DNA of 64,000 nt from Pseudomonadota bacterium. Lineage in GTDB: Bacteria > Chloroflexota > UBA5177 > JAJPKF01. This document shows positions 2,109-61,140 of the stretch, one piece after another. The stretch lies in the NCBI GenBank assembly GCA_021323865.1, contig JAJPKF010000024.1:9207-73206 (forward strand), read 5' to 3'. The translations under genes and the position numbers were made by a program. How positions within the stretch are numbered: the first letter of the stretch is position 1; every line of letters begins with the position of its first letter. The notes beneath the pieces are model-generated. The model was given only the letters and a program-made list of their open reading frames with translations, was not told where the DNA came from and searched no databases.

Positions 2109-4058
2109 ATGATTCGTAATCTTGCCGCCGGGCTCAGCGCCCTCGGCCTCATCCTGACCGGTTTTGCCTGGCATGGTGTGGCGCCGGTGCAGGCCAAGTC
2201 CAGGCCCGTCAAGCTGGGGCTGTACCACAACGGCTGGGACACCTACTATCGCAGCCCGTTCGGGGCCGCGCCGACCGACTCCAGGGTGACCCTCCGGCTA
2301 CGCAGCGCCACGGTGGTGACGAAGGCGACGCTCTATCTCCAAACGGAGAGCGGCTCGACCACCAAGCTGCCCATGCGTGTCTTCAAGCGAGGCAAGTCGG
2401 CAATCGTCTGGACGGTGACGACCAGACTCCCGTCCAAAGCGACGCAGCTCTCCTACTTCTTCCGGGCTCAGGCAGGCAGCACCGTTCGTTGGTACGGCGA
2501 CAACAGCGGTGTCGGCGAGGGAGGGCCGGGTCAGACCTACGGCAACGCCAACGACGTGGTCACGTACAGCCTCACCGTGTATCTGAAATCCTTCCATACG
2601 CCGGCCTGGATGAGAAATGCCGTGGTCTACCAGATCTTTCCCGACCGCTTTTTCAACGGCAACACCAAGAATGACCCCAAGAACGGTACCCGCTACGGCT
2701 ACATCACGGTGCGGTTTCACAAGCACTGGTCGGACCTTCCCGACCAGCCCTCATGCGGCTGCGACTTCTTCGGCGGCGATCTTCAGGGCATCATCGACAA
2801 GCTCGGCTATCTGCACAAGCTCGGCGTCAACGTCATCTACCTGAACCCCATCTTTCTGGCGCCGTCAAATCACAAATACGACACCAGCAACTTCAAGGCG
2901 ATCGATCCGGAATTCGGGACGCTCAAGACCTTCAAAGCGCTGGTGGGCGCGGCCAAGAAGCTGGGCATTCATCTGATCCTCGACGGCGTCTTTGAGGACA
3001 CGGGCAGCGACAGCGTCTACTTCGACAAGTACAGCCGGTTTCCCCACTCCCTCGGCGCCTACGAGTCCAAGAAGTCGCCGTACTATCCCTGGTACACCTT
3101 CTATCAATGGCCGGATAACTATGCCGACTGGAGCGGCGTGGACAGCCTGCCTCTCCTCAAGGAGAGCAACGCGGTCAAGGACTTTATCTTTCGCAAGAAG
3201 AGCTCGGTGGCCCAGTACTGGCCGGCACAGGGGGCGTCGGGTTGGCGCCTCGACTCTGCCAACAGTCTGAGCAACGGCTACTGGGAGCAGTTCCGAAGCG
3301 CCGTCAAGGCGGCCTATCCGCAGTCGGTGATGATCGGAGAGTACTGGCAGGATGCGCTGCCCTGGCTCATGGGGAACATGTGGGACGGCGTGGTCAACTA
3401 TCAGTTCCGGGAGCCGGTTCTCGATTTCTTCGCCAACGGTCAGGGCGCCCAAACGCCGACGCCCTACGGCGCCACCACCTTCCTCGAGAGCGAGATGGGT
3501 CTCATTGCCGAGTATCCTCGGCCGGCTATCGTCTCCTCGATGAACATCGTCGACTCGCACGATGTGGCGCGCATCCTGACTGACTTGAACGGCAGCAAGG
3601 CGGCACTGCGTCTCGTCGCGCTGTTCCAGATGACCTGGCTGGGCGCGCCCACCGTGTACTACGGTGACGAGACGGGAGTGATGGGCGCCTCCGATCCGGA
3701 CGACCGGCGGACGTTCCCCTGGTCGCACCAGGACAAGGCCCTCGAGCGCTATTACGCCAAGATCATCCATATCCGCCTGGGCCACGGCGCCCTCACAACC
3801 GGCTCGGTCACACCGCTCCTCAGCGCGGACGGCAAGCGATCGCTGGCCTTCCTGCGGCAGTCGGGCAGCCAGCGAATCGTCGTCGCGCTGAACGATAGCC
3901 ACCGTTCTCAGACCCTCAGCATTCCCGTGAGTCAGATCAAGAACGGCACCAAGTTAACCGAGCTGCTGAACGGCGGATCGCATACCGTGAGCAAGGGCCG
4001 GCTGCAGGTCAAGCTGGGGGCGCTCAGCGGCGCGGTTCTCGAGGCGGCCGGCCGGTAG
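2109..4058 (+). CDS. secreted GH13 alpha-amylase family enzyme (neopullulanase/cyclomaltodextrinase-like) with N-terminal beta-sandwich domain
   Basis: ATG 2109 is preceded by GGAGAGAGAG. The signal peptide is MIRNLAAGLSALGLILTGFAWHGVAPVQA. GH13 hallmarks are present: VVYQIFPDRF, GVNVIYLNPIF, GIHLILDGVFEDTG, GWRLDSAN, EYW, VDSHD. The track ORF (1917..) is over-extended upstream. Confidence 0.85.
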   Translation: MIRNLAAGLSALGLILTGFAWHGVAPVQAKSRPVKLGLYHNGWDTYYRSPFGAAPTDSRVTLRLRSATVVTKATLYLQTESGSTTKLPMRVFKRGKSAIVWTVTTRLPSKATQLSYFFRAQAGSTVRWYGDNSGVGEGGPGQTYGNANDVVTYSLTVYLKSFHTPAWMRNAVVYQIFPDRFFNGNTKNDPKNGTRYGYITVRFHKHWSDLPDQPSCGCDFFGGDLQGIIDKLGYLHKLGVNVIYLNPIFLAPSNHKYDTSNFKAIDPEFGTLKTFKALVGAAKKLGIHLILDGVFEDTGSDSVYFDKYSRFPHSLGAYESKKSPYYPWYTFYQWPDNYADWSGVDSLPLLKESNAVKDFIFRKKSSVAQYWPAQGASGWRLDSANSLSNGYWEQFRSAVKAAYPQSVMIGEYWQDALPWLMGNMWDGVVNYQFREPVLDFFANGQGAQTPTPYGATTFLESEMGLIAEYPRPAIVSSMNIVDSHDVARILTDLNGSKAALRLVALFQMTWLGAPTVYYGDETGVMGASDPDDRRTFPWSHQDKALERYYAKIIHIRLGHGALTTGSVTPLLSADGKRSLAFLRQSGSQRIVVALNDSHRSQTLSIPVSQIKNGTKLTELLNGGSHTVSKGRLQVKLGALSGAVLEAAGR

Positions 4059-4124
4059 CGGCGGCGACGTCGGGTCTGGCCTGTCTTCAGACCGCGGATG
4101 GGAGTATCGTGGGGTGAGAGAACG

Positions 4125-4922
4125 ATGACGAGGGTGGATTCGATGAACCGGGTGCTGGGCAAAGTCGCGGTGGTGCCGGCAGTGCTGCTGATGATCATGT
4201 CGGCCGGTGCCGGCGGACCCGTCCAGACACGGGCGGCCACCAATCCGGCGCTGCACCTTTTGAAGCAGTCGCTGCGAGTTTCGGCAGACAAGAAGGCGGC
4301 TCACGTTGTGGGCGGTCTCGGCGCTCGGATCTCCGACCACCTGGAAGGATTCACATTTTCGGTGACGGTTCGTGCCGGTGTCCGGGGCGATGTCGTAGAT
4401 CGCAGGCAGGGCCTGAGAGCGCACCTCAAGGGCCAGGAGCGCCTTGGTGGCTCGGCTCGGTCCTACAAGCTCGTGGTGGCGAACGGCAAGATTGCAAGCA
4501 AGTACCGCAAGACGGCGTGGGCCTGCACATCGCTCACCTCAGCCGGCTCGACGTTGGGTCTGGGCATGGGAACCATCACCCAGATGGCGGGCTTCGAGCG
4601 GAAGCTCAGGCGTGTGCTGCAGGTAACGGATCTGGGATCGACGACATTTCGTGGCGTACCGGTGTGGCATCTCCGCGCTACTATCCTCACGCGAATACCC
4701 ATGCGGACCACCGGCTCCTCGGGGAAGGTCAAGGTTACGCATCCGTGGGTCCACGTTCGAGCCAACTTCTGGATCAGCCGCAGCAACCAGACGGTTCGCC
4801 GAGTGACGGCGTTTGCGAAGATTCGGGCCAAGCAGAGCGCCGCGACGCTCCATCTTTGGGCTCGCTTCTCGCGCTACGGCGAGCACGTGCCGATCCACCT
4901 GCCGCCTGCCTGTCGCAAGTAG
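4125..4922 (+). CDS. hypothetical secreted protein (signal peptide), unknown function, in starch-utilisation locus
   Basis: The SD GGGTGAGAG precedes ATG 4125. The N-terminus has a hydrophobic signal (VAVVPAVLLMIMSAGAGGPVQTRAA). No recognisable domain. It is convergent with the ABC permease genes. Confidence 0.5.
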   Translation: MTRVDSMNRVLGKVAVVPAVLLMIMSAGAGGPVQTRAATNPALHLLKQSLRVSADKKAAHVVGGLGARISDHLEGFTFSVTVRAGVRGDVVDRRQGLRAHLKGQERLGGSARSYKLVVANGKIASKYRKTAWACTSLTSAGSTLGLGMGTITQMAGFERKLRRVLQVTDLGSTTFRGVPVWHLRATILTRIPMRTTGSSGKVKVTHPWVHVRANFWISRSNQTVRRVTAFAKIRAKQSAATLHLWARFSRYGEHVPIHLPPACRK

Positions 4923-4998
4923 CGACTTCCTGCCGCCCTAAATGAGGGCGGTGACGACGGGCGTCAGGCGGACCAGCGAGGGTAAGGCCTGACGACGA

Positions 4999-5949
4999 CT
5001 ACCCCTTCACGGCTCCGCGAGACAGCCCGGCGACCAGGAATCGCTGCATGGAGAGGAAGACGATCAACAGCGGTAGCGAGCCGAGAACGGCCGCGGCCGC
5101 GAAGTCGGTCCAGTTCTGGGTGAAGGCGCTGTTGATGAAGCCGTGCAGGCCCAGCGCCATGGTGTAGTTGCTGGTGTTCTGCAGCAGGAAGCTGGCGACC
5201 AGGTATTCGCTGTACAGGCCGAACCACGTGAAGAGAAAGACCACCGCCATCATCGGCCGGGTCAGGGGCAGGATCACCCGGAGATAGGCCTGCAGCTTGG
5301 ACGCGCCGTCGACATACGCCGCCTCCTCGAGATCCCGGGGCAGCGAGTCGATGTAGCCCTTGAACAGCCAGGCCACGAAGGGCAGACCGCCGCCGATCAT
5401 GACCAGCGTGTAGCCCTGCAGCGTGTCGTATAGGCCGATCTTGTTGAGCAGGAACTGGTAGGCGATGAACGACATCTGGGCAGGGAACATCTGGATGAGC
5501 AAGAGGCCCATGAGTCCGTACTTGCGGCCCTTGAAGCGGAACCGGCTGAAGGCGTAGGCCATGGTGGCCACCAGCAGCACGGTGATGACGCCGACAGAGG
5601 TGCAGACGATCACCGAGTTTCTGATCCAGGTGACGAACCCCACGTTGAGGTTGGGGTCGAACAGCGCTCGGTAGTGGTCGAGCGTGAACCCGGTGGGAAA
5701 GATGGTGTTGGTGAAGTAGGTCCCCGGCTGGAAGGAGGTGCCCACCACCCAGACGGCCGGCACCAAGATCAGAAACATGACGATCCAGACGATGATGCGG
5801 CTGCTCCAGAGGAACACGCGCTCGCCGGTTCGCATCCGTCTCTTCGCGCGCGAGCGGCCCCTGATCCAGCCCAGACCGCGTCCGGCCTGGGGCGTGCCCA
5901 CGGCGGCCGCAGGGAGGGCTTGGGCGACGCCCTGGCTGGTGGGTTCCAT
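4999..5949 (-). CDS. carbohydrate ABC transporter permease (MalG-like, binding-protein-dependent inner membrane component)
   Basis: Six TM segments and the EAA-like loop (YIDSLPRDLEEAAYVDGASKLQAYLRVILPLTRP) of sugar ABC permeases. Its start overlaps the stop of the upstream permease (TGATG coupling). Confidence 0.85.
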   Translation of the reverse strand: MEPTSQGVAQALPAAAVGTPQAGRGLGWIRGRSRAKRRMRTGERVFLWSSRIIVWIVMFLILVPAVWVVGTSFQPGTYFTNTIFPTGFTLDHYRALFDPNLNVGFVTWIRNSVIVCTSVGVITVLLVATMAYAFSRFRFKGRKYGLMGLLLIQMFPAQMSFIAYQFLLNKIGLYDTLQGYTLVMIGGGLPFVAWLFKGYIDSLPRDLEEAAYVDGASKLQAYLRVILPLTRPMMAVVFLFTWFGLYSEYLVASFLLQNTSNYTMALGLHGFINSAFTQNWTDFAAAAVLGSLPLLIVFLSMQRFLVAGLSRGAVKG

Positions 5950-10696: not shown

Positions 10697-11779
10697 TCAG
10701 TCGACGTAGTCGCGGATCTTCCGCGTGACGGTCGGATGGCGCAGCTTGCGCAGCGCCTCGATCTCGATCTGCCGGATGCGCTCCCGAGTGAGGCCGAAGT
10801 GACCACCCACCTCTTCCAGCGTCTGCGGGCGGCGCCCGGAGAGCCCATATCGAAGGCGGATGATGCCGGCTTCCCGGTCGCTCAGCTTGCCGAGTGCATC
10901 GTCGATGGAGTCGCGCAGGAGGCTCTTGTTGGCCAGCTCTTCCAGGTCGTGTGAGCCGTCCTCGATGAAGTCGCCCAGGAGGCTATCTTCATCGTCTCCG
11001 ACCGGCTTCTCGAGGGAGATCGGGAAGCGAACGGCGCTCTTGATCTCCTCGACCTTCTCGGGACTGACCTCCATCACCGTGGAGATCTCCGCCACCGTCG
11101 GCTCGCGGCCCAGCTCCTGGGAAAGCTGCATGACGGCACGGTTGTACCGGCTGATGCGCTCGTTCATGTGCACCGGGACTCGGATGGTCCGAGACTGGTC
11201 GGCGATGCAGCGGGTCACCGCCTGGCGAATCCACCAGGTGGCATAGGTGGAGAACTTGAAGCCTCGGCGCCAGTCGAACTTCTCGAACGCGCGCATGAGC
11301 CCGGTGTTGCCCTCTTGGATCAGATCCAGCAGGGACATGCCGTGGCCGAGATACTTCTTGGCCACGGAGACCACCAGGCGCAGGTTCGCCTCGATCATCT
11401 GGCGGCGAGACTCCTCACCCTTGCGTTCGTAGTCGCGCAGCACGGCCGGTTCCCAGGTCAGGACTCGTTGGGTTTCGGTCTCGCTCAGGCCATAGTCGTC
11501 GTTCTCGTCCAGCAGCCGGCGCTTGGCCTCTTCCTGGCCGGCCTCGTTCTCTCGGGCAAGCTCGATGAGCCGTTGCAGCTCAATGGACTTTGCCAGCCGG
11601 ACCTCGTCGGCCTTCTTGAGGAGCGGCACGCGACCGATCTCCCGTAGATATAGACGGACGGCGTCGTCGGCTTGTTCGCGCTCCAGCTCGGCATGGTCTT
11701 CGTCGGTGACCTGCCACTCATGAGACTCCTCCTCCAGGAGCGCCTCGTCGGGCACGACATCGTCTACAGGCGCGTACAT
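10697..11779 (-). CDS. RNA polymerase sigma-70 factor, RpoD/SigA (primary-like) family
   Basis: Region 1.2/2 (DLIQEGNTGLMRAFEKFDWRRGFKFSTYATWWIRQAV), region 3 and region 4.2 (LEEVGGHFGLTRERIRQIEIEALRKLRHP) are all present. An acidic N-terminus precedes them. A ~450-bp AT-richer promoter region lies upstream. Confidence 0.9.
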   Translation of the reverse strand: MYAPVDDVVPDEALLEEESHEWQVTDEDHAELEREQADDAVRLYLREIGRVPLLKKADEVRLAKSIELQRLIELARENEAGQEEAKRRLLDENDDYGLSETETQRVLTWEPAVLRDYERKGEESRRQMIEANLRLVVSVAKKYLGHGMSLLDLIQEGNTGLMRAFEKFDWRRGFKFSTYATWWIRQAVTRCIADQSRTIRVPVHMNERISRYNRAVMQLSQELGREPTVAEISTVMEVSPEKVEEIKSAVRFPISLEKPVGDDEDSLLGDFIEDGSHDLEELANKSLLRDSIDDALGKLSDREAGIIRLRYGLSGRRPQTLEEVGGHFGLTRERIRQIEIEALRKLRHPTVTRKIRDYVD

Positions 11780-17706: not shown

Positions 17707-18801
17707 TCAGTGCAGGGAGTTGGCGATGGAGAGGACCTGGGTGGCCGTGAGCTGGCCGGCAACACCGTAGATCTCGCGGTGCTGCTCCCAGATCACCACA
17801 CTGGCGACGCCGGTGTTGTCGCCGATGAGCACCCCGGGCGCGCCGTTCACCCGAACGCTGTGCGAGTAGGCGAGATTGACGGGCACCGGGATGGGGAGTG
17901 TGGTGGCCGGCTTGCCGATGGCTTCGATCTGCCGTGCGAGCTGCGGAGAAACGCCAGGGAGGTGCAACAGATACCGCTCGATGCGGGCGAGACCCGCGCC
18001 GCTCGAGGTGACGGTGGGTGCGGCTGCCTGGCCGACAACCAGGCTGGGCAGGGCATGAGCGGGCCCGTAGACGGTGATGACGGCAAGGCCGGTCTTGAGC
18101 CGAATGGTCGAGCCGTTGATGGCCTTGGGCATGCCCTTGAGCCGGCTGTGATGCTTGGCCGCGTAGTTGGCCGCCTTGGAGGCGCTGAAGGTGAAGGAGC
18201 TGTGCTGCGCGGGCAGCACCTGGAAGAAACGGGAGTGGGGAACCGAGGCCGGCAGGTGAGCCGGCACGAGCAGGTGCTCATGGGCGGCGGCCTCAGCGGC
18301 CTTCAGGCTATTGAGGGTTTCGGGCTGCACGTTCGAGGGGATGTGCAGCGATCCGTAGTTGCGCAGGTCGGGAAGGCTGCGCAGCTCTCCCGGCGTCACC
18401 GCCAGCGTGGTGAGCTGCTGGGGCTGAAAAACGGAGAGAACGTTATTGGCCAGGGCACCGGCCGGGGTGAAGGCGACGACGGCCGCGATGACCGCCGCCA
18501 TGGGAACCGGGCTCAGCCGCCATAGCTTGCGCGGCCTCAGATCTGAGATGTTCCAGCCCGGGCGGGTGCGCCGCACGTTTTGGCCGGAGGCGGCTTCAAG
18601 ACGTGCCCGCGCGCCGACGATGTCGCCCGCATATGAAGGGCGGTGACCCAGAATCTGGGCGACGATGTCTCGGTCACGCTTCACCTCTTCCAGCCGTCCG
18701 GAGCAGACCGGGCAGTGGGCCAGATGTTCGGCGCGGGATGAGCCCAATGCGAACGGCTCGTCCAGGAAGCGCCGCAGCTCTCCACGATTGATGTGTCTCA
18801 C
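17707..18801 (-). CDS. anti-sigma factor (zinc-finger HxxxCxxC, single TM, extracytoplasmic domain)
   Basis: N-terminal AEHLAHCPVCSGRLEE (ZAS-like) and a TM segment LSPVPMAAVIAAVVAFTPAGALA. It sits immediately downstream of, and overlapping, the ECF sigma gene. Confidence 0.7.
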   Translation of the reverse strand: MRHINRGELRRFLDEPFALGSSRAEHLAHCPVCSGRLEEVKRDRDIVAQILGHRPSYAGDIVGARARLEAASGQNVRRTRPGWNISDLRPRKLWRLSPVPMAAVIAAVVAFTPAGALANNVLSVFQPQQLTTLAVTPGELRSLPDLRNYGSLHIPSNVQPETLNSLKAAEAAAHEHLLVPAHLPASVPHSRFFQVLPAQHSSFTFSASKAANYAAKHHSRLKGMPKAINGSTIRLKTGLAVITVYGPAHALPSLVVGQAAAPTVTSSGAGLARIERYLLHLPGVSPQLARQIEAIGKPATTLPIPVPVNLAYSHSVRVNGAPGVLIGDNTGVASVVIWEQHREIYGVAGQLTATQVLSIANSLH

Positions 18802-19337
18802 TTCAATACCTCCTTTCGAAAGGCAGCCTCAGCCCGTCGGAGCAGGGTCCCCACATGGTTGATCCCGCAATCGAGGGCATCGGCGACTTCGGCGTAGCTC
18901 AACCCGCTGTAGCGGAGAGCGAGAATTTCGGCATGCCGGGGCGATAGTCTGCTCAGCGCCTCTCGGACCTCACGGCGGCTCTCGGTTCGATCGAGATGCC
19001 CCTGTGGGTCCAGGGCGGCTGGGGCGTCCAACCGCTCCTGCCGCACGGCCTCGCGCTCCTCGCGCCGGGTTCGGCGTCGTTTGGAGCGCACGGCATTGAG
19101 GGCAAGATGGGCCGCCGCTCGATGGAGCCAGGCGGGCGCATACGGAGCATCGGGATCGTGCCGGCCCATGAAGGAGAGAAATACCTCCTGCGCCACGTCC
19201 TCGGCCTCGTCGGCATCGTTGACGATGCGGTGGGCAATCGCCACCACCCGGCGGTACTCGCCGGTAAAGAGTCGCTCGAACTTGAGGCTCTGATCGGTTC
19301 CGGTGGTGGTCACCAAGCCGTGTACGCGTAGGGCCAT
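18798..19337 (-). CDS. ECF (group 4) RNA polymerase sigma factor
   Basis: Region 2 (YRRVVAIAHRIVNDADEAEDVAQEVFL) and region 4 (LSPRHAEILALRYSGLSYAEVADALDCGINHVGTLLRRA) are present. The anti-sigma gene overlaps its stop. Confidence 0.85.
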   Translation of the reverse strand: MALRVHGLVTTTGTDQSLKFERLFTGEYRRVVAIAHRIVNDADEAEDVAQEVFLSFMGRHDPDAPYAPAWLHRAAAHLALNAVRSKRRRTRREEREAVRQERLDAPAALDPQGHLDRTESRREVREALSRLSPRHAEILALRYSGLSYAEVADALDCGINHVGTLLRRAEAAFRKEVLK

Positions 19338-19534: not shown

Positions 19535-20392
19535 TCAATCGACGAGCAATGGGGCCGTCACGGCGTGAGAGTCGAGGATGCCTCGAGCACTGAGCTGTCG
19601 CTTGAGCATGCCGATCACGGCCGCGTTGCGCGATCCCTGACCGGCCGGAACCCTGCTCTCGATGGCCACGATCTCCGTCTGGGCGGCGCGGGCCGTGGCA
19701 AAATCGCCCCGGGCCGCCGCCTCGTAGGTGCGAACACAAAGGTGGGGATAGGCATTGGCGATGCTGGGAATGGCGCCGACGGCGCCCGCCAAGACGGCGG
19801 CGTCGATCAGATGCCGGGTGCCCGCAAACGCCCGAAACTCCCTTTCGCCCAGTCGCAGGGTCAGCTCCCGGAACCACTCCAGATCGTTCTGGCTGTCCTT
19901 GATTCCCACTACGGTGCCGTCTTCAGCCAGCCGGCAGGCCGTCTCCAGGCCCACATTGACGCGGACCGTCTGGGGAATGTTGTAGATGAGGAGCGGCAGA
20001 TCGACGCTGCTGCGAATGGCCGCGTAGTGATCCAGCAGCTCCGCCTGGCTGTGTGGATAGTAGTAGGGCGGTGTGGCCGCGATGGCGTCGGCTCCTGACT
20101 CCCGAGCCCGCTGCGCGTGCCGGAGGGCCAGCCGGGTGGCGGCGTCACTTACGTTGGCGATGACCGGGACTCGCCCGGCCACCCGCTCGACGACCGTGCG
20201 GGTTGCGGATGCCCGCTCGTCGGCGTCGAAGGCGGCGAACTCGCCGGTGGTGCCCATGACCCACAACCCGTGGACGCCCTGCTGAAGCTGAAAGTCGACC
20301 AGGCGTTCCATGGAGGCGAGGTCGAGCGTGCCCGTCGCATCTACCGGGGTGACCAGGGGCGTGAAGATGCCCCGAAACGCCGAAAGGCTCAC
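19535..20392 (-). CDS. dihydrodipicolinate synthase / N-acetylneuraminate lyase family (class I aldolase) protein
   Basis: The family motifs GTTGEFAAF and the Schiff-base lysine context VVGIKDS are present. It is translationally coupled to metG (4-nt overlap). Confidence 0.8.
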   Translation of the reverse strand: MSLSAFRGIFTPLVTPVDATGTLDLASMERLVDFQLQQGVHGLWVMGTTGEFAAFDADERASATRTVVERVAGRVPVIANVSDAATRLALRHAQRARESGADAIAATPPYYYPHSQAELLDHYAAIRSSVDLPLLIYNIPQTVRVNVGLETACRLAEDGTVVGIKDSQNDLEWFRELTLRLGEREFRAFAGTRHLIDAAVLAGAVGAIPSIANAYPHLCVRTYEAAARGDFATARAAQTEIVAIESRVPAGQGSRNAAVIGMLKRQLSARGILDSHAVTAPLLVD

Positions 20393-21969
20393 GGCTGCAC
20401 TGCCACGCCGGCTTCCCGCTCCAGTCGCGGGAAGAGCGGCTCCGGAGCCGTGACCTGCGCGCCTTCGACCTCGAATGCGGCAGGGCCGCGCCCTGGGTTC
20501 GGAATGCCAAGCTGGTTGAACATGCGTTCGGCCGTTACCGGCAGGAATGGCCGCAGGTTGACCGCCACCAGACGAAGCACGTGGGCGAGCGTGTTCAGGA
20601 CGGCATCGAGTCGGTCGCGTGCGCCGGCCGTCTCCGCCCCCTCGCCCCGCTCAAGACCGCGCTGCTTCCAAGGCGCCTGCTGCTCGATGTAGCGGTTTGC
20701 CGCGCTGATCACTTCCCAGACGGCGGCGGTCGCATGTTGGAACTGGTATGCCACCATGGCCTGGTGCACGCGGCCGGCCAGTCCTTCGGCGCGGGCCCGC
20801 AGCTCCGCGTCAGCCTCGTTCGTGGTGGCTCCCGAGGGCACCCGGCCGCCTCGGTAGCTCCGGATCATGGAGATCGTGCGGTTGAGGAGGTTGCCCAGAT
20901 CGTTGGCCAGGTCGGCGTTGTAGCGGGCCTCAAATGCCTCGATGGAGAAGTCGGCGTCGGCGGTGGGATGCGTGGCCGCCAGAAAGTAATACCGCACCGC
21001 CTCACTGCCGTACTCATCAACCAGCTCCACCGGGCTCAGAGAGTTGCCGAGTGACTTGCTCATCTTGCGGCCGTCGACGGTGTAGTGGCCGTGGACGAAG
21101 AGGACGTGCGGCAGCGGCACGCCCGCGGAGAGCAGCATGGCCGGCCAGTAAACGGCGTGGAAGCGGATGATGCCCTTGCCCACGGCGTGCACCCGGCAGT
21201 CGTTCTCCACCCAGAAGCGCCGGTAGAGGTCCTCGTCGCCGGCGTAGCCCAGGGCGGTGATGTAATTGCTGAGCGCGTCGAACCAGACGTACATCATCTG
21301 CGTCTCATCGCCTGGAACCGGAACTCCCCACCCGCGGGCCCGCTCGCGCGTACGTGAGATGCTGATATCTCGCAGACCCGACCTGAGGAAGGACAACACC
21401 TCGTTCTTGCGCTGTTCCGGGATCACCCGATAGGTATCGGACGCGATAAGCTCGGTCAGCCGCTCACCATAGCGGGAGAGGCGAAAGAAGTAATTCGTCT
21501 CCTGCACCTTATCGGGTGCGATGAGGTGGTCGGGACAGAGGCCGTCGACCAGCTCGTCCTCGTCATAGAACAGCTCGCATCGAGGGCAATACAGGCCGAA
21601 GTAGTCCTTCACATAGATGTCGCCGGCTCGATCCACCGCGGTCCAGAGCTTCTGAGCGCCCGCAGCATGACGGGGGTCAATGCTGGTACGGATGAACTGG
21701 TCGTAGGAGATGTCGAGCTTCTCGTCCAGCTCCATGAAGGCGCGGGTGTTGCGAGCCACCAGATCAGGAACGGCCAAACCCTCGCGCTCGGCAGCCAGCA
21801 CGTTGGTGATGCTGTTGTCGTCGCTGCCGGTCAGGAAGTAGGTCTCGTCGCCGATGAGCCGGTGGAACCGGGCGAGGGCATCCACCTGGGTCGCCTCGAG
21901 CCCATGACCCACGTGGGGGGCGGCATTGACGTAGGGAATTGCGGTGCTGATATAGAAGCGATTGGGCAT
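20389..21969 (-). CDS. metG: methionyl-tRNA synthetase
   Basis: Class I motifs HVGHGL (HIGH) and KMSKSLGN (KMSKS). Zinc-knuckle cysteines CPRCE...CPDH in the connective peptide. Confidence 0.9.
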   Translation of the reverse strand: MPNRFYISTAIPYVNAAPHVGHGLEATQVDALARFHRLIGDETYFLTGSDDNSITNVLAAEREGLAVPDLVARNTRAFMELDEKLDISYDQFIRTSIDPRHAAGAQKLWTAVDRAGDIYVKDYFGLYCPRCELFYDEDELVDGLCPDHLIAPDKVQETNYFFRLSRYGERLTELIASDTYRVIPEQRKNEVLSFLRSGLRDISISRTRERARGWGVPVPGDETQMMYVWFDALSNYITALGYAGDEDLYRRFWVENDCRVHAVGKGIIRFHAVYWPAMLLSAGVPLPHVLFVHGHYTVDGRKMSKSLGNSLSPVELVDEYGSEAVRYYFLAATHPTADADFSIEAFEARYNADLANDLGNLLNRTISMIRSYRGGRVPSGATTNEADAELRARAEGLAGRVHQAMVAYQFQHATAAVWEVISAANRYIEQQAPWKQRGLERGEGAETAGARDRLDAVLNTLAHVLRLVAVNLRPFLPVTAERMFNQLGIPNPGRGPAAFEVEGAQVTAPEPLFPRLEREAGVAVQP

Positions 21970-22305
21970 GATGCGGCTCTCCGCGTGGCTTACTCCAGCA
22001 TAGAGAAGCCACGACTGGCGGTCGGATGGCGGCTGGACGCGATTGTCACTCTCAAAGCCGGCTCAACGGTGGCCCCGACGAAGTGTCCTCCCGCAGTTCC
22101 ATGAAGTGAACGGTGAGCCTCCTGCCGATTGCGAACGACGTCCCAGAGGGACTTAGGTTCTGGCCGCGCGTTCCCGCCGTCTGCAGGAAAAGCGGCTGCA
22201 GCCACCATTCCCGACCACCGTCCAGCGGCCGAAGGATCGCCAGTCCGCGCCCTGGACGCGGCGCGATGGAGCGTAGTACGCCCGTTGGCTGCATCCGTAC
22301 ATCCT

Positions 22306-22334
22306 TTGACAAAGCGACGAGTGCGGCGTACAAT
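22306..22334 (+). promoter_or_regulatory. consensus sigma-70 type promoter (TTGACA-17-TACAAT)
   Basis: tTTGACAaagcgacgagtgcggcgTACAATg has perfect -35 and -10 hexamers with a 17-nt spacer. It lies ~40 nt upstream of the ATG at 22374. Confidence 0.5.
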
Positions 22335-22373
22335 GAACGAGAGCCGTCCGCGGAGAGAGAGCCGAGCAGCGCG

Positions 22374-22772
22374 ATGAATATCCCTACCCGCAACATGGCC
22401 ATGCGCAAGGCTGATCCGGAGAAGGTCATCGCGCGCTACGCCGAGCTGCGCAATCTCGAGCGGACCGGGCGCGAGTTCGGCATCACCCGAGAGCGGGTTC
22501 GACAGATCGTCAATCGAGCCGGCATCTCCACCGGCCGGCAGCTGAAGCCGAAGCCGGAGCGCAAGACCCGCCTCTGCAAGGAGTGTGGCGATCCCGTCGC
22601 TTCCGCCCACAGCCTGTACTGCTCAACCCATCGTTTGGAGAAACACAAGCGGCGCTACCGGGCGATCAAGGCGGACCCGGAGAAGTACGCACATTGGCGT
22701 GATCTGCTGAAGAAGTACGACCGGCGTCGCAAGATTCGTCTGCAGGAGCAGGCAGAGGCAGCTCCCGCCTAG
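22374..22772 (+). CDS. small DNA-binding protein with sigma-70 region-4-like HTH and C-terminal zinc-ribbon/basic tail
   Basis: LERTGREFGITRERVRQIVNRAG resembles sigma region 4.2. It is followed by CKECGDP...CSTH and a Lys/Arg-rich tail. The SD GGAGAGAGAG precedes ATG 22374. The track ORF (22113..) is over-extended. Confidence 0.55.
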   Translation: MNIPTRNMAMRKADPEKVIARYAELRNLERTGREFGITRERVRQIVNRAGISTGRQLKPKPERKTRLCKECGDPVASAHSLYCSTHRLEKHKRRYRAIKADPEKYAHWRDLLKKYDRRRKIRLQEQAEAAPA

Positions 22773-22882: not shown

Positions 22883-24061
22883 CTAGCGGACGGCCGTCGC
22901 CCGGCTGTCGAGCGCGTTCAATGCCGCGTCCAGATCGGCGAGCAGGTCCTCGACGTCCTCAATGCCGACCGAGAGCCGCACGAGGCCGTCGCTGATGCCG
23001 GCCGCCTCGCGGGCTTCCTTGGGGACCGAGGCGTGAGTCATGACGGCCGGGTGATCGGCCAGCGACTCGACGCCGCCCAGGCTCTCCGCCAGGGCGAAGA
23101 GCTGCAACGACCGCATGAATCGCGAAGCCCCCTCTAAGCCACCCGCGACCTCGACGGTAACGATGCCGCCAAAGCCGGACATCTGGCGCGCGGCCACGTC
23201 ATGGCCGGGGTGTTCCTCCAGGCCCGGATACAACACCCGAGTCACCACGTCCGTTCGCCCGGCCAGGTAGCGGGCCACCGCCGCGGCGTTTTGCTGGTGG
23301 CGCTCCATGCGCACGGCGAGTGTCTTCAGGCCGCGCAACAGCAGCCAGCAATCCATGGGGCCGGGTACGGCGCCGATGGCGTTTTGGTGAAACTTGAGCC
23401 GGTCGTGCACCTCGACATCGGCCAGGCTGACCGTTCCCATGACCAGGTCGCTGTGACCGCCGAGGTACTTGGTCGCGCTGTACAGGGCGATATCGGCGCC
23501 CAGCTCCAGCGGCCGCTGGAGGTAGGGACTGGCGAAGGTGTTGTCCACGGCCAAAAGGGCGCCATGAGCGTGGCCAATCTCGGCCATGTGCCGGATATCG
23601 ACGATCTTGAGCAGGGGATTGGTGGGCGACTCGATCCAGATCAGCCGGGTCTCGGGACACACGACCCGCTCGACCTCCTCCGGTCGAGTGGCGTCAACGA
23701 AATCGAAGCGCAGGCCGTACTTCCGATACACGCGCTCGAACAGCCGGTAGGTGCCGCCGTAGCAGTCGTCGGAAACGATCACGTGATCGCCGGGACCGAA
23801 CAGCGCCATCACCGTGGCTTCAGCCGCCATGCCCGAAGCGAACGCGAGCGCCCCGGCGGCCCCGTCGAGCGACGCCAGCGCGGTCTGGAGGGCAGATCTG
23901 GTGGGATTGTCGGTGCGCGAGTACTCGTAGCCCCGGTGCTGCCCGATGTCGGCTTGGGCATAGGTCGAGGTCTGATAGATGGGCACGGTCACCGAGCCGG
24001 TTTGGGGGTCAGGCTCCTGACCGGCATGGATCGCGCGAGTGCTGAACCCTTCGGGTTTCAC
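22883..24061 (-). CDS. cystathionine gamma-lyase / gamma-synthase (Cys/Met-metabolism PLP enzyme)
   Basis: PLP-lysine context YSATKYLGGHSDL and the family blocks IWIESPTNPLL and AVDNTFASPY. The GTG start at 24061 overlaps the CBS stop (GTGA coupling). The track ORF is extended upstream through the CBS gene in another frame. Confidence 0.85.
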   Translation of the reverse strand: MKPEGFSTRAIHAGQEPDPQTGSVTVPIYQTSTYAQADIGQHRGYEYSRTDNPTRSALQTALASLDGAAGALAFASGMAAEATVMALFGPGDHVIVSDDCYGGTYRLFERVYRKYGLRFDFVDATRPEEVERVVCPETRLIWIESPTNPLLKIVDIRHMAEIGHAHGALLAVDNTFASPYLQRPLELGADIALYSATKYLGGHSDLVMGTVSLADVEVHDRLKFHQNAIGAVPGPMDCWLLLRGLKTLAVRMERHQQNAAAVARYLAGRTDVVTRVLYPGLEEHPGHDVAARQMSGFGGIVTVEVAGGLEGASRFMRSLQLFALAESLGGVESLADHPAVMTHASVPKEAREAAGISDGLVRLSVGIEDVEDLLADLDAALNALDSRATAVR

Positions 24062-25473
24062 TGTGCCGCCCGGTTGTGGGCGATGAACTCGAGCAGGTCC
24101 GAGCGGGTAATCACCCCCACGGGCCGGTTGCCCTGCACGGCGATCAGGGCCGAGTCGGCGCCCAGCAGCGGCTCGACCACCGCCTCCACACTGTCGTTTA
24201 GATCGACCAGATCGAGGGGCGCATCCATCACATCTCCGACCTGATGCTCGACCATGGACGGATCCCTGAATACGCTGGCCAGCAGCGACTTCTCCTGAAT
24301 GCTGCCCACAATATCGTCGACCCGCTGCACCAGGCCCCTGCCTCCGACGGTCGAGCCATCTCCATCGGCCGTCAGAAGGGCGACGGGCATCTGGGAGATG
24401 CCATACTCCTGGAGCATATCGATCGCCTGGCCCACGCGGGAGGTCGGTGTGACCGCGACCATCTCCGGGATGTCGCCGTGACGGACACGGAGCAGGTCGG
24501 CCACCCGGGCCGAGGGCAGGCGTTCCAGATAGCCGTTGTCCTGCATCCATTGGTCGGAGAAGACTTTGGATAGATAGTTCCGGCCCGTGTCGGGAAGCAG
24601 GATGACCATGAGCGCGTGCTCGTCGAGATCCCTGGCGACCTCGAGCGCGGCAACCAAAGCGCTCCCGCCCGAGCCTCCCACCAAGATACCTTCCTCGCGG
24701 GTAACTCGCCGGGCAGCCCGGAACGAGTCCCGATCGGTCACCCGCACCCAGCGATCGATGATGCCGGGGTCGAATGTCCCCGGCCAGAAGTCCTCGCCGA
24801 TGCCCTCGACCTTGTAGGGCCGGATCTCACCGCCCGAGAGGAGCGAGCCTTCGGGATCGGCGCCGACCACCGTGACGTCAGGATTGCGCTCCTTGAGATA
24901 GCGCCCGGTGCCGGAAATGGTGCCGCCCGTGCCCACGCCGGCCACGAAGTGGGTGATGGCCCCGTCGGTCTGCTCCCAAATCTCGGGACCGGTGGTGGCA
25001 TAGTGAGTGTCCGGATTGGCCTGGTTGTAGTACTGGTTTGGCTGGAAGCCGCCCGGAGTTTCGAGGGCGAGCCGGTCGGCCACGCGGTAATAGCTGTCGG
25101 GTGATTCGGGCGGCACGGCCGTGGGTGTGATGACCACCTCGGCGCCATAGGCCTTGAGGAGCGCGATCTTCTCGGCGCTCATCTTGTCGGGCATCACGAA
25201 GATCGTCCGGTAGCCCTTGATGGCGGCGGCAATGGCCAGTCCCACTCCCGTGTTGCCGGACGTGGGTTCGATGATGGTGCCGCCCGGCCGCAGCAGGCCG
25301 CGCCGCTCGGCGTCGTCGATCATGCGGATGCCGATCCGGTCCTTGACGCTGCCGCCCGGGTTGAGGCTTTCCAGCTTGACGAGCATGGTCGGTTTCAATC
25401 CCCGCGAAACGCGCTGAAGCCGCACGAGGGGCGTGTTGCCGATGAGGTCGAGGAGGCTCTCGCGTACCTCCAT
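24058..25473 (-). CDS. cystathionine beta-synthase with tandem C-terminal CBS domains
   Basis: PLP fold-II motifs (LESLNPGGSVKDRIG, GNTGVGLA) and two C-terminal CBS motifs. Confidence 0.9.
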   Translation of the reverse strand: MEVRESLLDLIGNTPLVRLQRVSRGLKPTMLVKLESLNPGGSVKDRIGIRMIDDAERRGLLRPGGTIIEPTSGNTGVGLAIAAAIKGYRTIFVMPDKMSAEKIALLKAYGAEVVITPTAVPPESPDSYYRVADRLALETPGGFQPNQYYNQANPDTHYATTGPEIWEQTDGAITHFVAGVGTGGTISGTGRYLKERNPDVTVVGADPEGSLLSGGEIRPYKVEGIGEDFWPGTFDPGIIDRWVRVTDRDSFRAARRVTREEGILVGGSGGSALVAALEVARDLDEHALMVILLPDTGRNYLSKVFSDQWMQDNGYLERLPSARVADLLRVRHGDIPEMVAVTPTSRVGQAIDMLQEYGISQMPVALLTADGDGSTVGGRGLVQRVDDIVGSIQEKSLLASVFRDPSMVEHQVGDVMDAPLDLVDLNDSVEAVVEPLLGADSALIAVQGNRPVGVITRSDLLEFIAHNRAAQ

Positions 25474-38599: not shown

Positions 38600-38787
38600 G
38601 CATACATGGCCTTCGGGGCAGGGTGAGACGAGGAATCGCCAATTCCCGATCGGCGGTAGAGCCCGCGAGCGCGTCAGCGCAGGATCTGGTGAGACTCCAG
38701 AGCCGACGGTACAGTCCGGATGGAAGAAGGCACCATGCCCGCTCCCGGCGGGTCCTTCCCCGAAGTGCGTGCACTCGGGGTTTTTCA
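38600..38787 (+). ncRNA. FMN riboswitch (RFN element) with terminator/SD-sequestering expression platform
   Basis: The aptamer (~38608-38730) matches the RFN consensus block by block: CUUCGGGGCAGGGUGA, AUCGGCGGUAGAGCCCGCGAGC, GGAUCUGG...GAGCCGACGGUACAGUCCGGAUGGAAGAAGG. The B. subtilis ribD leader has ...UUCGGGGCAGGGUGAAAUUCCC-ACCGGCGGUA...AGCCCGUGAC...GCCGACAGUGAAAGUCUGGAUGGGAGAAGG for comparison. It is followed by the terminator at 38757-38784. Confidence 0.85.
38757..38784 (+). terminator. intrinsic terminator of FMN riboswitch expression platform
   Basis: CCCCGAAGUGC-gu-GCACUCGGGG (10-bp stem with one bulge) followed by UUUUU. The 3' arm contains the GGGG that would serve as the SD for the TTG at 38788. 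Confidence 0.75.
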
Positions 38788-60865: not shown

Positions 60866-61140
60866 GGTGATCGTGCTAGGCGGGGAGCTAGCGGTGCCCT
60901 GTACCCGCAATCCGCTATAGCGGGGCGTAATTCCGCGCTTGAGGCCTGGCTCAGCCAACACTGTTCGGTTTGTTCGACGTTGAAGACCGGGTTCTGCGCG
61001 GCGGAGCCCCGTGAACCCCGTCAGGTCCGGAAGGAAGCAGCGGTAAGCGGCCAGCTCCGGGTGACGCAGAGGAGCCTGGTCTGAGCCGGCATGCTGGATA
61101 AGCTGAGTGGACCAGTGTCGAGAGTGCGGTGCACGATCAC
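60866..61140 (+). ncRNA. ffs: signal recognition particle RNA, large Bacillus-type (with Alu domain)
   Basis: The domain IV core CCCGUCAGGUCCGGAAGGAAGCAGCGG is present. The Alu-domain region GAUCGUGCUAGGCGGGGAGCUAGCGGUGCCCUGUACCCGCAAUCCGCUAUAGCGGGGC aligns almost base-for-base with B. subtilis scRNA. The 5'/3' closing helix is GGUGAUCGUGC...GCACGAUCACC. The protein ORF 60770-61084 covering it is spurious. Confidence 0.8.

Follow-up and report, generated by a model that had tools for sequence, protein, structure and literature searches.

In a 64-kb stretch of contig JAJPKF010000024.1, assembled from an uncultured Chloroflexota population (the whole stretch is called the window below), a short forward-strand gene at positions 22374 to 22772 encodes a 132-amino-acid (aa) protein that joins a helix-turn-helix (HTH) resembling region 4.2 of primary sigma factors to an invariant zinc finger and a basic helical tail. 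We take the protein to be, most probably, a regulator of transcription and not part of a sigma factor, and put the probability that it is a highly expressed, sequence-specific DNA-binding regulator at roughly 0.55. It is of a known kind: small HTH proteins that stand alone and either derive from sigma region 4 or are related to it. It is distinct from the known members of that kind in keeping the exact residues with which housekeeping sigma factors read the -35 element, in carrying an invariant zinc finger and basic helical module seen in no other architecture, and in combining conservation above that of nearby metabolic enzymes with a phylogenetically conserved, near-consensus promoter. This combination of features, including paralogy and linkage to recA and mre11-rad50 in relatives, is not described in Pfam, NCBIfam, PHROGs, PADLOC, PDB, or the literature that we searched. 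Invariant columns are counted in an alignment of 30 family members, and structural statements refer to an AlphaFold2 model built from a 49-sequence alignment (mean predicted local distance difference test [pLDDT] score of 89). The parts of the protein are as follows.

22374-22772, forward strand: coding sequence, 132 aa plus stop; HTH, then CCCH zinc finger, then basic helical tail
22404-22523, forward strand: three-helix HTH, residues 11-50, recognized by Pfam (PF04545), PDB profile search, and Foldseek
22524-22568, forward strand: extended basic linker, residues 51-65, ISTGRQLKPKPERKT, without regular secondary structure in the model
22569-22631, forward strand: zinc finger, residues 66-86, R-x-C68-K-E-C71-G...Y82-C83-x-x-H86, with invariant ligands and predicted metal binding
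22632-22760, forward strand: two long basic helices, residues 87-129, pLDDT of 92-97 in the model

An earlier interpretation made from the letters alone (the sequence-only reading) had described the HTH as nearly identical to sigma-70 region 4.2, and this was borne out. The Pfam model Sigma70_r4 (PF04545) matches aa 19-49 with 28.7 bits, above its gathering threshold of 24.1, and matches 48 of 49 family members and relatives. The HTH sequence, GREFGITRERVRQIVNRAG, is present in the 132-aa protein and forms helices at residues 15-25, 28-35, and 39-48, the recognition helix reading I-T-R-E-R-V-R-Q-I-V; over 20 aa it shares 60% identity with region 4.2 of the primary-type sigma factor that the window itself encodes (10697-11779, reverse strand). 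When the family profile was compared with PDB sequences, the best matches were region 4.2 of RpoD/SigA, with TRERIRQI aligned to TRERVRQI, and residues 571-593 of Escherichia coli sigma-70 (HTLEEVGKQFDVTRERIRQIEAK) were aligned to positions 26-48. This places R39, E40, R41, R43, and Q44 opposite sigma-70 R584, E585, R586, R588, and Q589; E40, R43, and Q44 do not vary in the family, and conservation at R39 and R41 is 90% or more. Substitutions at sigma-70 R584, E585, and R588 alter specificity at positions -31 and -33 of the -35 element (PMC2613000). Foldseek found 37 to 41% identity to sigma-A domain 4 over 44 to 49 columns, and the best fold matches were HTH modules of mariner/Tc3 transposases, Tn3 resolvase, GcrA, and sigma domain 4. 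An ordinary LuxR/GerE-type fragment, which the sequence-only reading had named as the outcome that would overturn it, is ruled out: PF00196 is absent from the Pfam matches of the 132-aa protein at E<=10 and in a scan of 49 members, from the 25 families matched most often out of 79 with E<=0.1.

Likeness to the primary sigma factors (sigma-70/SigA, PF04545) extends to the three-helix HTH, the TRERVRQI helix (TRERIRQI in sigma), and the -35 specificity residues, whereas the Chloroflexota protein stands alone at 132 aa without regions 1 to 3, and its CCCH finger and basic helical tail occur in no sigma factor. No region 2 (Sigma70_r2) was detected by hmmscan at E<=10, the sigma model covering aa 19-49 only. 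From the sequence, three roles had been proposed for such a protein: split-sigma subunit, anti-sigma-like decoy, or binder of -35 elements. We favor the last, as the equivalents of R584, E585, R588, and Q589 are kept, with little or no variation; the other two are not supported. Always monocistronic, the gene lacks a conserved operon partner, and in the eight contexts inspected the neighbors (metG, PHP_C, recA, Mre11, phosphoribosyltransferase, and ABC transporter genes) differ between clades and include no adjacent, conserved, region-2-like gene, unlike split sigma factors of the SigO-RsoA type. As for a decoy, the match to the region-4 model covers positions 14 to 44 only, out of 50, with a shortened recognition helix and no counterpart of the C-terminal helix of sigma. 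Zinc anti-sigma (ZAS) proteins also differ in their ligands (H-x3-C-x2-C, compared with C-x2-C-x11-C-x2-H here), and no anti-sigma Pfam family was matched.

The gene itself starts at ATG 22374, stops at TAG 22770-22772, and encodes a product of 15.6 kDa with an isoelectric point (pI) of 10.6; the sequence-level description of the 132-aa protein in the sequence-only reading holds, save for small corrections. A longer in-frame open reading frame (ORF) in the ORF list, a 219-aa form extended upstream to GTG 22113, contains the promoter and its extension is not conserved in homologs; on these grounds, the start of the 132-aa form, or M8/M10, is judged to be the true start. Translation of the ORF, on which the earlier interpretation depended, is supported by the pattern of nucleotide differences from three orthologs, of which 60/80, 70/90, and 68/97 fall at third codon positions. 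This substitution pattern, together with 135 homologs, rules out a spurious or untranslated high-GC ORF. Protein identity to the orthologs in three loci (L007, L090, and L093; L numbers designate individual homologous loci) is 89 to 90%, compared with 72 to 77% for the flanking pyridoxal phosphate (PLP)-dependent enzyme of Cys/Met metabolism, 80 to 81% for cystathionine beta-synthase (CBS), and 63 to 66% for LytR in the same genome pairs. By this comparison of sequences, purifying selection on the 132-aa gene is stronger than on the neighboring metabolic enzymes. The antisense ORFs at 21990-22610 and 22052-22429, like the upstream extension, show no conservation in homologs.

Beyond the HTH, the linker is strongly basic, with six K/R against one D/E in residues 51-66 and with K58 and K60 nearly invariant. 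The finger had been called a zinc ribbon; its motif, C68-x2-C71-x11-C83-x2-H86, is present and invariant in the 30 family members, and the word ribbon is the part that gives way. In the model, a knuckle and short strands surround C68/C71 and the last two ligands lie at a helix N terminus, and the predicted finger looks more like a treble clef than a classical ribbon. Fingers of the YacG, FCS, and zf-primase (Mcm10) types share the arrangement C-x2-C ... (Y/F)C-x2-(C/H) with the last ligands at a helix N terminus, but the scores lie below the family thresholds. The YacG match (E of 6e-4; NF002362 at 19.5 bits against a cutoff of 79) aligns only aa 56-85. The ligand pattern of zf-primase (PF09329) fits, with below-threshold matches in 28/49 members at E<=0.1 (best, 8e-5), the window protein not being among them. 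YacG is, furthermore, a stand-alone gyrase inhibitor, and zf-primase occurs in replication proteins.

The very basic tail that had been noticed is confirmed, with 16 K/R against 7 D/E in residues 87-132 and 35 K/R in the whole protein. The two helices, residues 84-100 and 102-129, are joined at an invariant K-A-D-P capping box, and the family alignment shows no variation at K99, A100, P102, or Y105. When a profile of the C-terminal half (residues 56-132) was searched by itself, it recovered no proteins outside this Chloroflexota family, and the C-terminal module is therefore not known in other architectures; the fold search found no solved structure like the full-length protein. A DksA/Gre-like factor of the polymerase secondary channel, suggested by the helical pair with its acidic K-A-D-P-E-K turn, was considered and dropped because KADPEK also precedes the first HTH helix and so represents a helix N-cap, and because the first helix is just 17 residues long and the DksA-type phrog match has an E value of 0.18. 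One KADPEK copy (aa 12-17) precedes the first helix of the HTH and the other (aa 99-104) the final helix, and the two are encoded by a 19-nt direct repeat (22406-22424 and 22667-22685, 89% identical). Both are helix N-cap boxes; an old duplication within the gene may account for them, or they may represent the "DPE" motif with which helices also start in distant multi-HTH relatives.

Expression of the gene is addressed by its promoter and leader, which contain the following elements.

22275-22301, forward strand: upstream element, AGTACG (22275-22280) and CGTACA (22296-22301), directly upstream of the -35 box
22306-22311, forward strand: -35 hexamer TTGACA, context cTT-TTGACA-aa; TTGAC[A/G] in about 20 distinct homologous loci
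22329-22334, forward strand: -10 hexamer TACAAT after a 17-nt spacer, context GGCG-TACAAT; GGC[G/A]TA[C/T]AAT kept across homologous loci
22352-22361, forward strand: Shine-Dalgarno-like purine-rich stretch, GGAGAGAGAG, in a leader of about 33 nt

The promoter had been described as the sole perfect consensus promoter seen in the window. Its uniqueness stands, as the pattern TTGACA-N16-18-TANAAT has a single occurrence on the two strands of the 64 kb, where dinucleotide shuffles predict 0.01; TTGACA-17-TACAAT agrees with the consensus at 11/12 positions and is near-perfect rather than perfect. The ORF begins 39 nt downstream, and transcription is predicted to start near 22341. About 20 distinct homologous loci keep the pattern cTT-TTGAC[A/G]-N17(18)-GGC[G/A]TA[C/T]AAT at 39 to 56 nt before the ATG (110 nt in one locus), and the spacers and flanks are unrelated. 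Since the motif is kept while its surroundings have diverged, this phylogenetic footprint marks the promoter as functional and under selection. Homologous leaders carry GGAG/GGGAAG-type motifs 8 to 15 nt before the ATG, among the commonest 5-mers there. The promoter lies in a divergent region shared with metG (20389-21969, reverse strand), previously given as 400 bp and here measured as 404 bp between the two start codons.

A conserved near-consensus promoter fits strong expression, as had been suggested; that the expression is constitutive was an assumption, and the conserved elements beside the promoter argue for regulation instead. The two GTAC cores of the upstream element are 21 nt apart in sequence that has otherwise diverged, and CAGTACG-N14/15-GTACA is kept in 6/6 distinct orthologous loci (the window, L090, L007, L015, L093, and L008), making the pair a candidate operator or activator site. 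As an operator of the whole family GTAC was dropped, being conserved only in the clade of the window and absent from most recA-linked loci; it occurs in another form near the -10 box of a second paralog type, described below. A different element recurs in the leaders. TGACA/TGTCA is present in 8/17 nonredundant leaders, against a shuffle mean of 1.4 and with 0/5,000 shuffles reaching 8, and the full TTGACA/TGTCAA is present in 4/17 against a mean of 0.34, although the loci are phylogenetically related and these statistics overstate their independence. Most copies are inverted relative to the -35 box.

A homology search over 5.8 billion proteins returned 135 full-length matches (E of 1e-70 to 1e-36; 55 to 90% identity), and the family comprises about 140 clusters; among the matches listed, lengths are 95 to 171 aa, mostly about 130 aa. 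The few matches named by their sources are proteins of Chloroflexota metagenome-assembled genomes (MAGs), some called "sigma factor-like helix-turn-helix DNA-binding protein," the NCBI name, and some members are labeled "ribosomal protein L37E." The window protein shares full-length similarity and all invariant columns with this uncharacterized Chloroflexota family. An HMMER scan over 1.84 billion representatives gave a handful of full-length clusters, the remaining hits being similar at the level of the HTH only. Mapping of phyletic distribution and context, which had been recommended as a check, found true members among species-representative genomes only in soil Chloroflexota MAGs, a few of them mislabeled "proteobacterium," with neighbors that differ by clade; from these searches, the gene is confined to a clade of uncultured soil Chloroflexota. 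No family members were found on viral contigs or in phage genomes, and a full-text literature search found nothing on the family. A role in a defense system was dropped, as the PADLOC anti-phage defense models matched 0 families at E<=1.

At least one genome holds more than one copy. A second paralog type, with the N terminus xQSQRGLKLRRVDP (L001/L013, L009, L017, L022, L087, L100, and L114), is convergent with and overlaps a phosphoribosyltransferase gene and has a weaker, conserved promoter, TTGCAG-16-CATAAT/CATACT, with GTGTACGT just before the -10 box. One long-read MAG (GCA_963737125.1) carries both paralog types. About 15 contigs, some of them 10 to 159 kb long, end within the HTH-coding part (L014, L016-L022, L103, L108, and L136-L140); L018 and L021, from one MAG, overlap by exactly 141 identical nt, the assembler k-mer size, and L016 and L017, also from one MAG, are paralogs 94% identical over 212 nt. 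Repeat-induced breaks in short-read assemblies between near-identical paralogs, possibly arising through gene conversion, would explain these contig ends. Distant relatives in other phyla (P0131, P0136, P0138, and others) consist of four to eight tandem copies of a short HTH unit, e.g., RNQRIVARYQEGAPLKDLAAEFGVS, and others have one HTH, a C-x2-C...YCS-x2-C finger, and repeated R-Y-x-x-(D/N)-P-E helices. The tandem-HTH and HTH-finger relatives make up a broader superfamily of sigma-4-like HTH modules, apparently an uncharacterized one.

The surroundings of the gene depend on the clade. In that of the window, the genes for the Cys/Met PLP enzyme, CBS, and LytR follow in convergent orientation; in a sister clade, the gene and recA are invariably divergent, as seen in at least 15 loci. 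Downstream of it in the sister clade come mre11 and rad50, in at least 10 loci, the Mre11 proteins being just 57 to 61% identical, and in L003 nurA and mutS come after mre11-rad50. The clustering of recA, the HTH-zinc finger gene, and mre11-rad50 is seen in L010, L011, L012, L014, L096, L104, L105, and L115-L118, and is exemplified by L011:

2761-3774, reverse strand: recA
4001-4357: HTH-zinc finger gene
4523-5845: mre11
From 5857: rad50

In the sister clade, the fixed position between recA and mre11-rad50-nurA suggests genes of recombination and repair as targets there, which does not extend to the locus of the window; the window contains no recA, mre11, or rad50. In the intergenic region between recA and the HTH-zinc finger gene, a conserved element of the form GATTATAGCAC(A/G)N(A/T)TGACCTA lies about 25 to 50 nt upstream of the -35 box (L010, L011, L018, L019, L020, L104, L110, and L115-L118). 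In the orientation of recA its sequence is TAGGTCA...TGTGCTATAATC, which is that of an extended -10 promoter. WTGACC resembles a -35 hexamer and could be a site for the HTH-zinc finger protein inside the recA core promoter.

Under the reading that we prefer, a sequence-specific regulator, the protein would bind double-stranded DNA alone, with its HTH in the major groove of a TTGACA/TGACA-like hexamer, and the basic linker, zinc finger, and basic helices would hold the adjacent DNA, by analogy with the DNA-binding modules of homing endonucleases. Transcription would most simply be regulated by occupancy of -35-like boxes. Large amounts of the protein would be made, with probable feedback on its own promoter and its perfect TTGACA; autoregulation through this -35 box and the recurrent TGACA of the leaders is plausible from the sequences. 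GerE, YlxM/p13, SpoIIID, and Mu Mor are likewise small proteins with a single HTH and no sensor domain, and SpoIIID also joins its HTH to a basic C-terminal segment that contacts DNA. In contrast to the Chloroflexota protein, all of these are without a zinc finger, and at the level of Pfam neither GerE (PF00196) nor YlxM (PF04297) was matched, Mor giving a weak match in 4/49 members. An ordinary autoregulated transcription factor is the most likely outcome. If -35-like binding is true, the protein would be a natural, simple case of a cellular factor that competes or cooperates with sigma at the -35 element. It would then also be a candidate for lineage-specific control of recombination and repair genes in the abundant, uncultured Chloroflexota of soil.

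Several points weigh against this reading. A TTGACA binding site in the gene's own promoter is a prediction from sequence, and the second TGACA is absent from the leader of the window itself. The upstream element in the clade of the window is based on GTAC and not on TGAC, and if it is the operator, the proposed -35-like specificity is wrong. Recognition helices of the TRERVRQI type occur in many unrelated multi-HTH and phage proteins, and the helix may be a generic scaffold rather than a signature of specificity. Isolated sigma region 4 binds -35 DNA weakly. The recA synteny is missing in the clade of the window and could reflect inheritance and not function, and high conservation with a strong promoter would suit a polymerase-associated or nucleoid protein equally well. 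A bolder form, in which the protein reads -35 boxes (TTGACA) genome-wide and independently of polymerase, acting as an occluder or as a general factor that recruits polymerase, tuning sigma-A-dependent initiation, setting its own level, and controlling recA/mre11-rad50 in the sister clade, we consider unlikely; to our knowledge, no cellular protein has been described as a free-standing genome-wide -35 reader.

Among the alternatives, we consider unlikely a factor associated with RNA polymerase, whether a region-4 substitute or decoy on the core enzyme or sigma-A, part of a split sigma, or an initiation factor in the style of CarD, RbpA, or GcrA, its HTH touching -35 DNA and its C-terminal helices holding polymerase. 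The region-4.2 identity, the architecture, the strong conserved promoter, and conservation above that of neighboring enzymes, as for the partner of a conserved machine, would all suit such a factor, but the protein lacks region 2, no gene for a region-2-like partner lies nearby, and the neighbors vary. Moreover, with region 4 incomplete (14-44/50), the surfaces that hold the beta-flap tip, judged from published holoenzyme structures, are probably incomplete, and for the C-terminal half neither sequence nor fold searches matched a known polymerase-binding domain. Nor is that half similar in sequence or fold to the sigma-interacting domains of GcrA and RbpA, lineage-specific general transcription factors that consist of a DNA-binding or zinc domain, a basic linker, and a helical domain. 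Improbable to a similar degree is an abundant nucleoid-associated or architectural protein that coats or bends DNA through its basic residues with little sequence specificity. Its basicity (pI of 10.6; 35 K/R in 132 aa), the high copy number implied by a near-consensus conserved promoter, the presence of at least two paralogs in one genome, and the lack of an operon partner speak for this, whereas the base-contacting residues of the recognition helix are invariant, suggesting specific reading of bases, an HTH combined with a zinc finger is typical of site-specific binders, and putative operators are conserved beside its own promoter.

An RNA-binding or ribosome-associated zinc protein, its zinc knuckle and basic helical tail being like those of small ribosomal proteins or the Rpr2-type subunits of RNase P, is very unlikely: the L37E label of some members, the strong promoter, the extreme conservation, and an Rpr2 match with an E value of 0.009 point that way, but this match is far below threshold (16.7 versus 29.3 bits), the N-terminal HTH of the double-stranded DNA type scores above its Pfam threshold, and the inspected contexts show no linkage to ribosomal or RNA-processing genes. 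We regard as still more remote a mobile-element remnant or cargo, i.e., the DNA-binding module of a domesticated homing endonuclease or transposase that still spreads in multiple copies. The top fold matches do include HTH domains of transposases and resolvases as well as phage HNH proteins, one genome has two copies, and a number of metagenomic contigs, many of them in all, end within the gene. Homing endonucleases (the I-TevI type and those phage HNH proteins that have both an HTH and a zinc finger) are similarly built as a string of small modules, here the HTH, extended basic linker, zinc finger, and basic helix, which suits monomeric binding of a long asymmetric site; HNH-domain proteins and small HTH proteins of phages gave weak full-length fold matches, and phrog_1271 (HNH endonuclease; E of 4e-4) aligned only on its internal HTH/zinc segment, 156-207 of 361. 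Against this, Pfam and NCBIfam place no nuclease domain (HNH or GIY-YIG) in the 132-aa protein, and there is no transposase domain; the module order is reversed relative to I-TevI; and the gene is chromosomal, under strong purifying selection, and stably syntenic within clades, with no members in viral or phage collections. Missing terminal inverted repeats in the flanks, the lack of viral members, and stable synteny largely rule out a mobile element or miniature inverted-repeat transposable element as the current state. Origin from a mobile-element module is possible, and current mobility is not supported.

Elsewhere in the window, the primary-type sigma factor mentioned above (360 aa) reads TLEEVGGHFGLTRERIRQIE in region 4.2, and an ECF-type sigma factor of 179 aa is encoded at 18798-19337 (reverse strand). 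A flavin mononucleotide (FMN) riboswitch (38605-38735, forward strand; 94 bits) and a bacterial large signal recognition particle (SRP) RNA (60871-61136, forward strand; 175 bits) are the only RNAs in the window at the Rfam gathering level, and the 404-bp region between metG and the HTH-zinc finger gene has no Rfam match even at E<=1. The metG-proximal part of that region contains a 27-nt inverted repeat (22013-22039 and 22219-22245, 78% complementary, 179 nt apart) that matches no T-box or other leader in Rfam and may form a metG leader structure. Finally, the 555-aa ORF at 22883-24550 (reverse strand) over-extends the Cys/Met-metabolism PLP enzyme, whose orthologs align to about 386 aa only (22883 to about 24049), and the part upstream of that runs over the CBS gene (24058-25473) in a different frame.

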